Made by a program: the position numbers and the translations under genes. 64,000 nt of DNA from Acidobacteriota bacterium (GTDB taxonomy: Bacteria; Acidobacteriota; Vicinamibacteria; Vicinamibacterales; UBA2999): the NCBI GenBank assembly GCA_016190945.1, contig JACPPO010000014.1:6303-70302 (forward strand), written 5' to 3'. How positions within the stretch are numbered: the stretch's first letter is position 1; each line of letters opens with the position of its first letter. The notes beneath the pieces were generated by a model that saw nothing but the letters and a program-made list of their open reading frames with translations, was not told the DNA's origin and ran no database searches. Of this stretch, positions 4,296 through 37,320 are shown piece by piece.

Positions 4296-4371
4296 GGGCC
4301 CGTAGCTCAGCGGTTAGAGCGGCCGGCTCATAATCGGTTGGTCCCAGGTTCGAATCCTGGCGGGCCCACCA
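4296..4371 (+). tRNA. tRNA with anticodon CAU (elongator tRNA-Met; tRNA-Ile2 not excluded), CCA encoded
   Basis: Folded by hand into a 76-nt cloverleaf: acceptor GGGCCCG/CGGGCCC, D arm GCTC/GAGC, anticodon loop CTCATAA, T arm CCAGG-TTCGAAT-CCTGG, 3' ACCA. The G1-C72 pair argues against an initiator tRNA. Confidence 0.88.
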
Positions 4372-33988: not shown

Positions 33989-34990
33989 GTGAAGGCCCTC
34001 ATCACTGGCGGTGCCGGCTTCATCGGGTCGCATCTCGCAGAGCGGCTTCTGGAGCTCGGCCACGAGGTGGCGGTCCTTGACGACCTGTCGACCGGCTCGA
34101 TTGACAACATCGCGCACCTCAAGGCGGCCAGGCATTTTTCGTACGTCGTCGACTCAGTCACCAGCGAGCCACTTCTCGCCGAGATGATCGACCGCAGCGA
34201 GGTGGTGTTCCACCTGGCCGCTGCGGTTGGCGTCAAGCTGATCGTCGAGCGGCCGGTGCACACGATCGAGACCAACGTGCACGGCACCGAAGTCGTCCTG
34301 AAACACGCAAATAAGAAGAAGAAACTCGTCTTCATCGCATCGACCTCGGAGGTATACGGGAAGAGCGCCGACGTGCCGTTTCGCGAAGCGGCGGATTGCG
34401 TGCTGGGCCCTTCAGCAAAGCATCGCTGGGCGTACGCGTGCAGCAAGCTCATCGACGAGTTCCTGGCCCTCGCGTATTGGAAGGAGAAAAAGCTGCCAGT
34501 GATCATCGTCCGCCTGTTCAATACCGTCGGTCCGCGCCAGACGGGGCAGTACGGGATGGTGCTTCCCACCTTCGTCCGCCAGGCGCTGGCGGGCGATTCG
34601 ATCACTGTCTTCGGCGATGGCACCCAGTCGCGCAGCTTCACCTACGTCGGCGACGTGGTGGACGCTCTCGTGGCGCTGGCTGCTGAACCGCGGGCCATCG
34701 GCGAGGTGTTCAACATCGGCAACAGGGGCGAAATCTCGATCCGCGATCTCGCCGAGCGCGTGAAAACCTTGGCCGGCAGCGACTCTCCAATTCAGCTCAT
34801 CCCCTACGACGAGGCGTACGAGGAGGGGTTCGAGGACATGCCCCGGCGCGTCCCCGACATTTCGAAGCTCAGGGCGCTCATCGGGTACGAGCCGAAAGTG
34901 GGCCTCGACGAAATCATCCGGCGCGTCATCGACCGCATGCGCGAGCACGAGGTTCCGCAGAATCGCACGAGCCGGGCTGCCGTTCCCTAG
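33989..34990 (+). CDS. NAD-dependent NDP-sugar epimerase/dehydratase, UDP-glucuronate decarboxylase-like
   Basis: ITGGAGFIGSHL and catalytic YACSK (YxxxK). GTG start. Confidence 0.85.
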   Translation: MKALITGGAGFIGSHLAERLLELGHEVAVLDDLSTGSIDNIAHLKAARHFSYVVDSVTSEPLLAEMIDRSEVVFHLAAAVGVKLIVERPVHTIETNVHGTEVVLKHANKKKKLVFIASTSEVYGKSADVPFREAADCVLGPSAKHRWAYACSKLIDEFLALAYWKEKKLPVIIVRLFNTVGPRQTGQYGMVLPTFVRQALAGDSITVFGDGTQSRSFTYVGDVVDALVALAAEPRAIGEVFNIGNRGEISIRDLAERVKTLAGSDSPIQLIPYDEAYEEGFEDMPRRVPDISKLRALIGYEPKVGLDEIIRRVIDRMREHEVPQNRTSRAAVP

Positions 34991-35040
34991 ACATCGTCGT
35001 TCCTCACACCTAACCGTCGCGGCACGCCGGGCTGCGCCGC

Positions 35041-35142
35041 CGGCTCCGCATGCCGGGAAATCGCGCTCCGACTCGCCTCTTTTTCACTCGCGCATCGACT
35101 AGTTGCTCATTCGAAACGGAGTCCGTCAGGCGCAATCGGACC
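35041..35142 (-). repeat. ~103-bp repeat unit, left copy (inverted relative to 36376-36478)
   Basis: Its reverse complement aligns by hand to 36376-36478. The first 32 nt are identical, a later 25-nt block is identical, and about 22 of 34 middle positions match. Confidence 0.88.
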
Positions 35143-35501
35143 GCCGGTGGTGGTTCCTGCATCCGGGAGCACATGGACGGAAGTCGACGCGGAAGACTCG
35201 CTCCGCGCGATTTCCGGATCTTGGAATCGGCATGCTCCGACGGCGGCGCAGCACCGGCACGCCTGCGACGCGATGATCGGCGTGGCCGCCAGCCCGAATC
35301 AGCGGGGATACCGCGGCGCGCTTGGCGTTCGCAGTCCGTTAAACTTAGACCCACTGCGAGTGGATACCCGCGAGCCTCGCGCGTATCCACCGGAGCACCT
35401 CGTGTGGGAGCCTGCTGTAAGCATCGGATAATGAATCGCTTCCTGGCATCACGCCGTCATACGTGACGGCGGTTACGCGCAGCCCAGCGGGTGAATAGTG
35501 G

Positions 35502-35822
35502 TTAGGAACCTACACGAACGAAAGTCTTGGGTTGAAGGGACCGGAGCGATTCAAGAATCTTCGGGACCAACGGAGCAAGCGATTCAATACGATTCGAGTC
35601 GGCTACGAGCACAACAACGGCAACAGATAGTGTCTTGAGGTTCTGCTGAAACTCGATGCTCTGGTCGGCTGTGAGCACGACATCGAACGCGGCGGCGGCT
35701 TGGTGCAGAAGGGCGCCATTCTTGAGGCCTCTCCAACCGACCTGAGCGACGGTTCTGGCTTCGTGGCCTACGAGCAGTTCTGCCAGCGGTCTTGGGAGCG
35801 ACTCATCGAGCAGGGCGCGCAC
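35502..35822 (-). CDS. DUF5615-family PIN-like (Mut7-C-type) putative toxin
   Basis: MRALLDESLPRPLAELLVGHE...VVLTADQSIEF. It overlaps the upstream DUF433 gene by 20 nt, the known pairing for these two families. Confidence 0.75.
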   Translation of the reverse strand: MRALLDESLPRPLAELLVGHEARTVAQVGWRGLKNGALLHQAAAAFDVVLTADQSIEFQQNLKTLSVAVVVLVADSNRIESLAPLVPKILESLRSLQPKTFVRVGS

Positions 35823-36030
35823 GAGACGTCAGAAGGTCCTTGGCAATTTCCAAGGCGGCGACGGCCTGTTCTCGGGTGACGGTCGGAAAGTGGTCGAGGA
35901 ACTTCTCGAGGCTGTCACCGGCAGCCAGGTAGTCCAGTAGGTTCTTAATGGGGACGCGAGTGCCCGCAAACACAGGCGTTCCACCGAGAATCTCGGGGTC
36001 GCTTTGTACGACTGATTCAAGCGTGGGCAT
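35803..36030 (-). CDS. DUF433 domain protein (putative antitoxin)
   Basis: DPEILGGTPVFAGTRVPIKNLLDYL...FPTVTREQAVAALE. Confidence 0.8.
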   Translation of the reverse strand: MPTLESVVQSDPEILGGTPVFAGTRVPIKNLLDYLAAGDSLEKFLDHFPTVTREQAVAALEIAKDLLTSRARPAR

Positions 36031-36192
36031 CTGGGTCTCGGGACTCTACAATGCCATGGTACATCGTCACCCGTAGGGTGCCTAACACGGACTGGACCCG
36101 GCGGCGCGGCGAAGCCAAAGCGCCGCGGCTACATGGACACGTTGACTAAAGGCTCGTATCGGCGCCCACGGCGTACCCATCGTCGGCGCGGA

Positions 36193-36375
36193 TCAGCGGA
36201 CGGTGACGCCCCCATGGGTCCAATCGAACGCTCCGGCGGCGCCGGGAGGCAGGGCGTCGCACTCGCTGGCGGGACCGCCGATGAAGAAGCTGGTCGAGTC
36301 GCTGGCGGCGTTGCCGGCGCCGTTGTCCTGCACCTCGAAGCGCAGATCGAGGCCTTCGGGGAATGCCGGGTGGCT
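36193..36375 (-). pseudogene. Start-less coding-like 3' fragment (unknown family)
   Basis: This minus frame reads ..AFPEGLDLRFEVQDNGAGNAASDSTSFFIGGPASECDALPPGAAGAFDWTHGGVTVR*. It has strong G/C at third codon positions. The frame has no ATG or TTG, and its only GTG is internal (VQDNG, 46 codons before the stop), back to the upstream stop. Its 5' side runs into the repeat copy. Confidence 0.35.
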
Positions 36376-36478
36376 GGTCCGATTGCGCCTGACGGACTCC
36401 GTTTCGAGTCGGCAAATAGTCGACGCGCCAGCGTAAGGGAAGCGAGTCGGAGCGCGATTTCCCGGCTATGCGAAGCCG
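36376..36478 (+). repeat. ~103-bp repeat unit, right copy
   Basis: GGTCCGATTGCGCCTGACGGACTCCGTTTCGA...GCGAGTCGGAGCGCGATTTCCCGGC. It ends 57 nt upstream of the ATG at 36535. Confidence 0.88.
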
Positions 36479-36534
36479 GCGGCCGTAGGACGGCCGTCCC
36501 CGCGGCCAGTGAGAAGCGTATACTGGGAGATCAC

Positions 36535-37320
36535 ATGGGGTTCCGGGCGCTGACCGTGGCTGCCGTTCTTCTGGGCTGGGCCCTGCCGCTCGGCGCCCAG
36601 CAGTCGGTCATGCTGCAGTTCAACGACGGCCAGGTTACCCTCAGCGCACAGAATGCGCCGGTCCGGGCGATCCTCGCGGAATGGGCGCGCCTGGGCGGGT
36701 CGACCATCGTCAACGGCGATCGCGTGGCAGGACCTCCGGTGACTCTCGAGCTCGCCGGGGTGCCGGAACGGCAGGCGCTCGACATCGTGCTCCGCAGCGT
36801 CGCCGGTTACATGCTTGCGCCCCGCCGCGCGGGTTCGCGCGGCGTCTCGACGTACGACCGTATCCTGATCCTGCCCACGAGTGTCGCCCCCAGAAATCCG
36901 TCTCCGCCGGCAGTCGCGTCGGGCGTCCCGCGACCGGTCCTGCCGCGCCCGCCGGTCATCGCGCGACAGCCCGACGCGGGTGTAGAGGTGCCGATCGACG
37001 CCGGACAGGATGACATTGATGCCGTCGGCGCGCAGGATCCGGCGACCTCCAATCAGCCGCGTGCCGGCGATCCGCGCCGGGTCCAGCCGCCGTTCGTGAT
37101 GCGGCCGCCGCCGGCACAACCTGGCGCCGAGCCTCTCGACCCCGACGGCACGCCGAATGATGCGGAGGAGCCGGGCCCGGCCGCTCCGGCCGGCGTCGCG
37201 CCGACGCCGACGAACCCGTTCGGCATCCCGTTCGGATCCTCGGCGACACCCGGTGTGGTAACGCCCGCCCCCCGGCCGCAGGAGCAACAGCAGCGGCCAG
37301 GGCCAAACCGCGTACAATAA
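36535..37320 (+). CDS. Secreted protein with an STN-like N-terminal domain and a proline-rich C-terminus
   Basis: Signal peptide MGFRALTVAAVLLGWALPLGAQQ, then NAPVRAILAEWARLGG..VTLELAGVPERQALDIVL, then a Pro-rich tail. GGGAGA precedes the ATG. The upstream part of the 395-aa ORF covers the repeat and looks non-coding. Confidence 0.6.
   Translation: MGFRALTVAAVLLGWALPLGAQQSVMLQFNDGQVTLSAQNAPVRAILAEWARLGGSTIVNGDRVAGPPVTLELAGVPERQALDIVLRSVAGYMLAPRRAGSRGVSTYDRILILPTSVAPRNPSPPAVASGVPRPVLPRPPVIARQPDAGVEVPIDAGQDDIDAVGAQDPATSNQPRAGDPRRVQPPFVMRPPPAQPGAEPLDPDGTPNDAEEPGPAAPAGVAPTPTNPFGIPFGSSATPGVVTPAPRPQEQQQRPGPNRVQ

Follow-up and report, generated by a model that had tools for sequence, protein, structure and literature searches.

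A dispersed repeat with a predicted hairpin fold in soil Acidobacteria, and two inverted copies that frame a putative toxin-antitoxin module

The ERIC, Correia and REP/BIME-like repeats of bacteria are imperfect palindromes that lie between genes, close to gene ends, and are probably transcribed. They are present or absent at orthologous sites and have long predicted hairpins able to act on transcript ends. Integron attC sites are 57-141 bp long with RYYYAAC/GTTRRRY boxes, and toxin-antitoxin cassettes are common cargo there. Vicinamibacterales-type Acidobacteria are abundant in soil and poorly studied, and their repeats and small mobile elements are, to our knowledge, almost undescribed. In TIMEs, the repeats are 38 bp long and of Tn3 type and the target duplications are AT-rich and 5-6 bp long, and two copies of a TIME, direct or inverted, can bracket unrelated cargo as a TIME-COMP. 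Here, a 64,000-nt stretch of an Acidobacteriota assembly of the order Vicinamibacterales (GCA_016190945.1, contig JACPPO010000014.1, positions 6,303 to 70,302, referred to as the window and used for all coordinates without a locus name) is described in which two inverted copies of a ~260-nt repeat enclose a DUF433/DUF5615 toxin-antitoxin pair. The original prediction for this segment had been that a ~103-bp inverted repeat was either the end of a mobile cassette that moves an addiction module or a dispersed structured intergenic repeat. The reading to which we lean, with modest confidence, is that the element resembles a miniature inverted-repeat transposable element (MITE), a palindromic repeat that is polymorphic for insertion and whose hairpin is under selection; in the window, a complete and a truncated inverted copy would frame accumulated DNA, with the toxin-antitoxin pair as a passenger.

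The inverted repeat pair joins 35036-35142 to 36376-36483 by alignment and blastn, over 108 nt at 88% identity, such that the two intervals are indeed inverted copies of one unit. A repeat search returned the same pair as 35052-35142/36376-36466 (91 nt, 88% complementary) plus 35036-35060/36459-36483. The 32-nt and 25-nt blocks that had been reported as identical have no difference between the arms, and each occurs twice in the 64-kb window, where shuffles expect none; the 34-nt core that separates them has diverged as described, with 12 mismatches. The boundaries of the unit had been misread, given that the "103-nt unit" is, as judged from homology and predicted pairing, the 3' half of a ~260-nt hairpin-forming non-coding element.

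The left copy of this element is complete (35015-35277, minus strand; nhmmer 35015-35268, E 3e-70), and the left repeat arm, 35036-35142 on the minus strand, is its 3' half by repeat search, alignment and blastn. The strand assigned to the left copy is the slightly better-pairing one, with a folding z of -4.4 against -3.7 on the plus strand. The right copy (36376-36509, plus strand; nhmmer 36374-36509, E 2e-36) is 5'-truncated and spans only model positions 4-137 of ~261. It retains the conserved hairpin, the 3' arm with the right repeat arm at 36376-36483, and the 3' tip, and its inner side is missing. Over their outer ~30 nt, the two ends are considerably different: the final ~26 nt of the right copy (…GGCCGTCCCCGCGGC) agree with the family tip (…GGTATCCCCGCGGC), and those of the left copy do not, so the right copy is itself a member of the family rather than a mere copy of the left arm. 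The same homology carries the right copy to ~36509, about 25 nt before the ATG at 36535, and not to an end 57 nt before it as had been proposed. The two window copies are each other's closest relatives, because they have substitutions in common that are absent from all other members. The supposed third partial copy (35205-35217) matches over 11 nt, which is no more than chance would give (E 1.2); in the minimum free energy structures and the pair table, this segment (plus strand) forms one side of the left copy's closing stem, paired with 35053-35066 on the other side.

Homologues of the element occur at eight other Acidobacteria loci (L001 and L003-L009), aligning over up to ~255 nt with 72-83% identity to the window copy. 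A profile was built from ten copies, the eight external ones and the two in the window, and nhmmer E-values across the external copies run from 3e-78 to 3e-50. The genome of L001 has one core match, and its homology takes in the left arm and the adjoining 125 nt on the inner side (window 35143-35268). Metagenome contigs scanned with a 20-mer added eight loci, of which seven (L003-L009) carry the element. Full copies are ~255-265 nt long, and a longer element was rejected, as no homology between loci is found upstream of the 5' stem. The element is taken to be non-coding because its conserved core carries frame-breaking indels (+1 in L008, -14 in L009) and its open reading frames have no Pfam domain; the same two indels rule out a small conserved protein. 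No match was found in Rfam 15, at gathering or permissive thresholds (E up to 1-10), for the window element or seven other copies, none was found in viral contigs and plasmids, and no description of the element was found in the literature. The family is previously undescribed, and its carriers are Vicinamibacterales-like soil Acidobacteria. A separate match on L002, a metagenome contig with chemotaxis-type genes (CheY-like and CheR-like), is limited to ~24 consecutive bases of the conserved hairpin (TCGATTGCGCCTGACGGACTCCGC) at positions 534-577 (nhmmer E 6e-6); in so large a database it may be due to chance, or it may be a captured fragment.

Full copies of the element fold better than shuffles on either strand, with z from -2.8 to -4.4. 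The suggestion that the shorter unit itself may fold does not hold: the isolated 103-116-nt unit gives z of -0.8 to -1.6 on its better strand and ~0 on the other, no better than shuffles. The predicted fold of the full element is one long imperfect hairpin, the ends of which pair over ~45 bp in four stem segments, with a conserved internal loop that has GGAG on both sides. An inner 9-bp helix, GCGTCGACT/AGTCGACGC, is predicted inside the closing stem, and the predicted interior is branched, with a conserved hairpin, GTCCG-ATTGCGCCTGA-CGGAC, that has an 11-nt loop. Two extra self-complementary insertions (GGCTGGCAGGCACAGCC and CGCCGCATCTGTGCGGCG) stand inside the closing stem of the L007 copy (L007:1-227) and look like expansion hairpins.

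The predicted structure is matched by covariation among the copies. A 57-pair structure was derived from three full copies and then counted on all ten, many of which end at contig ends; 92-94% of cells are paired, changes on both sides occur at 18 pairs, and none of 500 shuffles equals this result. When one partner was slid by 1-3 columns as a control, 26-48% of cells were paired. Several of the covarying pairs sit 55-130 nt from the tips, and they reach deeper than a transposase-bound terminal repeat normally would. On the strand reading GGTCCGATTGCGCC…, eight G.U pairs are found where the other strand has A.C, with one in the reverse direction, which is a weak hint that pairing is strand-specific (binomial about 0.04, with cells that are not independent).

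The nine loci, the window and the eight others, have nine different sets of neighbouring genes. At four of the six loci that can be interpreted (the left copy in the window, L001, L005 and L006), one tip is 0-40 nt past the stop codon of a gene oriented toward the element. The element is also found where assemblies end: six of the seven metagenome contigs that carry it terminate inside it, one of them 43 kb long, and this is far above the chance expectation, which is by our arithmetic 1-30% per contig. The breaks likely result from several near-identical copies per genome or from loss of coverage at the hairpin.

Empty sites are available at two of these places. At L001, the spacer between the hydrolase and DUF72 genes is 471 nt with the element, as compared to 28 nt in L020-L022, in which the DUF72 protein is 84% identical to that of L001. 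Beside the element in this spacer, another ~170 nt of non-coding DNA (L001:1222-1395) has no counterpart in the 28-nt spacer of the relatives; it is hairpin-prone, gives weak miRNA-precursor-like Rfam noise at 1228-1342, and is without homologues at the other loci. The window site lies between two native flanks. On the left is a gene for an NAD-dependent epimerase/dehydratase, the last gene of a sugar operon (33989-34990, plus strand; Pfam PF01370, E 8e-57). The right flank (36500-37320, plus strand) was recognised by homology to the spacers of relatives, which restarts at ~36500-36503; it consists of an upstream block, GGCCAG..CGTATACT..TCAC, and then the gene for a secreted protein (ATG 36535) that is 100% identical to P0001, which places the window in an NCBI Acidobacteria metagenome-assembled genome with locus tags HYX77_. 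From the epimerase stop to this ATG, the window has 1544 nt with the full block, whereas the spacer is empty in L011 (21 nt; secreted protein 80% identical) and in L012 and L013 (61 nt; 71% identical), and in L023 it is 105 nt (81% identical) with a short remnant of the element. The 1.5-kb block is therefore an insertion, because the epimerase and secreted-protein genes are 21-105 nt apart in the relatives. Neither L010 (secreted protein 79% identical), with another upstream gene, nor L024 (78% identical), from which the second epimerase gene is missing, has the element. The original prediction was to be given up if the unit occurred at this locus only and relatives had no empty sites; the eight other loci and the empty orthologous sites contradict this, and the idea of a dispersed structured intergenic repeat proved essentially right.

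The remnant in L023 bears on the history of the site. The L023 spacer has the left junction AACCGTCGCGG in common with the window, followed by GGCATGCGGAGCCGGC, a 16-nt exact match to the 3'-arm hairpin of the element, in the orientation of the right copy and without cargo. Beyond GGCATGCGGAGCCGGC, the spacer aligns with window 36460-36534, a result equalled by none of 1000 shuffles. From the shared junction, the 16-nt piece and the alignment, the site probably already had an element, oriented like the right copy, when the window and L023 lineages separated, and most of it has since been lost from L023.

Between the two copies, the interior of the block is, by its homologies, a patchwork of unrelated pieces. 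The intact toxin-antitoxin pair that had been proposed is present, both of its Pfam domains scoring above the cut-off. A 75-aa putative DUF433 antitoxin (35803-36030, minus strand; PF04255, E 1.3e-19) precedes a 106-aa putative toxin with a DUF5615/PIN-like domain (35502-35822, minus strand; PF18480, E 7.6e-7), and the two genes overlap by 20 nt. As a type II toxin-antitoxin system of adjacent small genes, antitoxin first, the pair is an ordinary member of its class; no description of the DUF433/DUF5615 pairing was found in the literature. The putative toxin has 435 homologues at E <= 1e-10, and many of the close ones are on contigs only ~1 kb long. The two genes together with ~98 nt upstream form a conserved DNA block (35501-36128, minus strand), with a G+C content of 54-61%, below that of the flanks. 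This block is 87% identical over 628 bp to L016, L017 and L018 and 86% identical over 596 bp to L019. These four contigs represent two other gene contexts (L016-L018 and L019), where the homology ends at the edges of the module and no element is present; the more distant homologues in L014 and L015 (72%) are likewise without the element. The module is therefore independent of the element, since its close homologues occur with other flanks and no element, and it would seem to travel on its own.

In L019 (714-4654), a DDE transposase (PF01609) and a gene whose product has an anti-Pycsar Apyc1-like domain (PF23023) are found close to the toxin-antitoxin pair. A 239-aa gene beside the pair in L016 was considered as a relative of the gene fragment in the window and was rejected as unrelated.

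That fragment, correctly described as start-less, is the 3' end (last ~57 codons and stop) of a gene for a ~176-aa secreted protein (36193-36375, minus strand). Its translation from 36196-36375 matches the C-terminal end of the 176-aa protein P0244 by phmmer, with 51% identity between query positions 4-60 and residues 119-176 of 176. The 5' part of the gene is missing exactly where the right copy begins, at the 5' edge of the conserved hairpin, and the exact meeting of a broken gene with the right copy points to a single deletion or joining event. No fetched locus has a homologue of the stretch from 35278 to 35500. Within this stretch is a decamer, GGGGATACCG (35304-35313, plus strand), found by pattern search and identical to the family consensus tip; the pattern GKGGATACCS occurs three times in the window, where 0.21 are expected, and two of the occurrences are at 35304 and 35360. 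The decamer is possibly debris of another element copy. The near-perfect palindrome of 31 nt at 35360-35390 (GTGGATACCCGCGAG-C-CTCGCGCGTATCCAC, unstranded) is supported by both sequence and fold, as had been noted, and its arms resemble element tips; it may be a tip-to-tip remnant, or it may act as terminator hairpin for the toxin-antitoxin operon. As reported before, the segment contains no transposase: none of its open reading frames has a transposase domain, and the remaining ones have no other Pfam domain either.

Much of this is as expected for a MITE. The element is short, at ~260 nt within a range of 50-500 bp, it has no coding capacity, and terminal inverted repeats are represented by the ~45-bp pairing in every full copy, though the tip sequence varies. 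Several results nonetheless weigh against the MITE-like reading. The tips vary among copies, unlike a conserved transposase binding site, and no partner transposase was found in the window segment or at any element locus. No target-site duplication was recognised, in agreement with the original prediction: the window and L001 junctions have no significant direct repeat in a comparison of two filled/empty pairs with empty sites from diverged relatives, and extended flank repeats are not significant. Presence and absence could in principle result from deletions instead of insertions. No copy beyond the two was found in the 64-kb window with blastn-short or nhmmer --max, or by the profile in ~90 kb of the relatives' loci, and an exact 22-mer from the 32-nt block matched a single contig (L001, from an Acidobacteria metagenome-assembled genome) among 185,579 representative genomes. 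Every external copy was retrieved by an exact core word. This makes the copy counts minimum values, and it accounts in part for the apparent lack of variation in the core, where 24 consecutive alignment columns do not vary. Finally, the covariation in the arms could partly reflect co-evolving terminal repeats instead of folding.

Under the MITE-like reading, the history of the locus might be as follows. The element would land in very short spacers, usually 0-40 nt past a stop codon, mobilised in trans by some enzyme. Selection would maintain the hairpin, be it folded in DNA that is single-stranded or in the 3' untranslated region of the neighbouring transcript. In the window, the inverted pair may have made the spot prone to rearrangement, capturing foreign DNA, and a deletion at the edge of the conserved hairpin could have removed both the 5' part of the neighbouring gene and the right copy's inner half.

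The alternative that survives best, although we consider it unlikely, is that the element works mainly as a structured RNA, whether as a small RNA gene or as a stabiliser or terminator in the 3' untranslated region, and was scattered by recombination and loss, not by transposition. The strong fold, the compensatory changes deep in the stem, the conserved hairpin loop with repeated CGGAG motifs, the eight G.U pairs on one strand versus one on the other, and the consistent placement just past stop codons would all suit such a role. However, Rfam gives no match even at permissive E-values, no conserved promoter or U-tract terminator is present, and the better-pairing strand is antisense to the adjacent gene, such that co-transcription would yield the worse-pairing strand. 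Nine contexts at nine loci and empty orthologues at two sites would be unusual for an RNA gene, and the breaking of contigs inside the element also speaks against one. The MITE-like and RNA-level readings can hold together, as they do for ERIC- and Correia-type repeats. The element resembles the ERIC, Correia and REP/BIME repeats in that it is palindromic, intergenic, insertion-polymorphic and predicted to form a hairpin, but it has no sequence similarity to them, is about twice as long as ERIC (127 bp), is acidobacterial with an apparently low copy number, and has a branched interior with a conserved 11-nt hairpin loop.

A composite, TIME-COMP-like non-autonomous transposon is a less probable explanation, and an improbable one: the two outward-facing ends would have been used by a transposase acting in trans to insert the whole 1.5-kb block, toxin-antitoxin pair included, and an internal deletion would afterwards have truncated the right copy. 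The block is absent from orthologous sites, both of its outer edges are formed by one type of element end, in opposite orientations, the G+C content of the cargo is below that of the flanks, and MITE pairs of 244-262 bp are known to mobilise cargo in either orientation. The element shares with TIMEs its size class (~260 bp, as compared to 244-262 bp), its lack of coding capacity and its terminal inverted repeats, and most copies begin with GGGG, like Tn3-family ends. Beyond this GGGG, the tips vary and have no Tn3-like inner motif, no duplication of the kind expected of a TIME was found, the paired region is ~45 bp with covariation far inside it, and no Tn3-family transposase is in sight.

The comparison with a TIME-COMP is weakened further by the right copy, which lacks its inner half, such that one of the two bounding copies is only a half-element rather than both being complete. 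The dissimilar outer ~30 nt of the ends and the missing target-site duplication also argue against a composite transposon, as do the mosaic interior with its broken gene, the occurrence of the toxin-antitoxin module elsewhere without the element, and the lack of any recurrence of the block. The L023 remnant without cargo points the same way, though it could also be a deletion derivative. Nothing in the data shows the block moving as one unit, and the mobile cassette of the original prediction is for these reasons not favoured: the right copy is truncated, no duplication is found, the interior is mosaic, the module stands alone elsewhere, and L023 carries a short remnant of the element without the cargo.

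More doubtful again is a strand-specific mobile element that acts as a folded single strand, with GTCCG-ATTGCGCCTGA-CGGAC as a recognition or cleavage site for a recombinase or an HUH-type nuclease. Such an element would explain why structure is conserved rather than sequence, why one strand pairs better and why no target duplication is found; it would also explain why the right copy breaks off exactly at the 5' edge of the hairpin, where foreign DNA is joined to it, as in one-ended capture of adjacent genes. Among known systems, integron attC sites and other folded single-strand recombination sites are also similar to the element, in that stem structure is likewise kept over sequence, one strand pairs better, and the position is just downstream of genes. 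In contrast to attC sites, the element is ~260 nt long, GTTRRRY-like flanks are found at L001 and the left window copy but at no other of eight copies, the copies are inverted and not direct, and no integrase or cassette array is present. Both attC boxes and Tn3-type ends were rejected as features of the family, since neither is general across copies. A purely local, one-off inverted duplication with no wider family is refuted, for although the arms share derived substitutions and are each other's closest relatives, eight homologous copies lie in other genomes and contexts and the last ~26 nt of the right copy fit the family consensus and not the left copy.

The element would matter in practice as well. 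The element appears to break metagenome assemblies, and it marks sites of gene gain and rearrangement. The window locus is a concrete, testable case of an addiction module arriving between two housekeeping genes. If the hairpin were a recombination substrate or a functional RNA, it would be a new family in either class; if the element is simply a MITE, its practical value is as a model for annotating Vicinamibacterales-type genomes.

Other features of the junction were noted. The secreted-protein gene is preceded directly by a block, CCAGCGG.CGTCGTATA(A/C)T…(G)AGG.GTCAC, that is kept in relatives even with a different upstream gene (window 36500-36534, L010:3600-3632, L011:2320-2340, L012:5969-6000 and L023:2905-2936). 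It contains a -10-like TATAAT/TATACT ~10 nt from the start codon, and the placement of such a putative -10 element so near the start suggests a very short leader. The junction has more than one kind of variation, since in L024 (2469-3622) the first epimerase gene is separated from the secreted-protein gene after it by 103 nt. In the window epimerase, the final ~13 codons (EVPQNRTSRAAVP) are homologous to non-coding spacer in L023 (window 34940-35020 versus L023:2832-2880), and a 17-nt insertion bounded by CGTTCC repeats lies just after the epimerase stop codon; the C-terminus of the epimerase appears to have been remodelled beside the element. Elsewhere in the 64-kb window, a tRNA-Met (CAT) at 4296-4371 is the sole Rfam/ARAGORN match.

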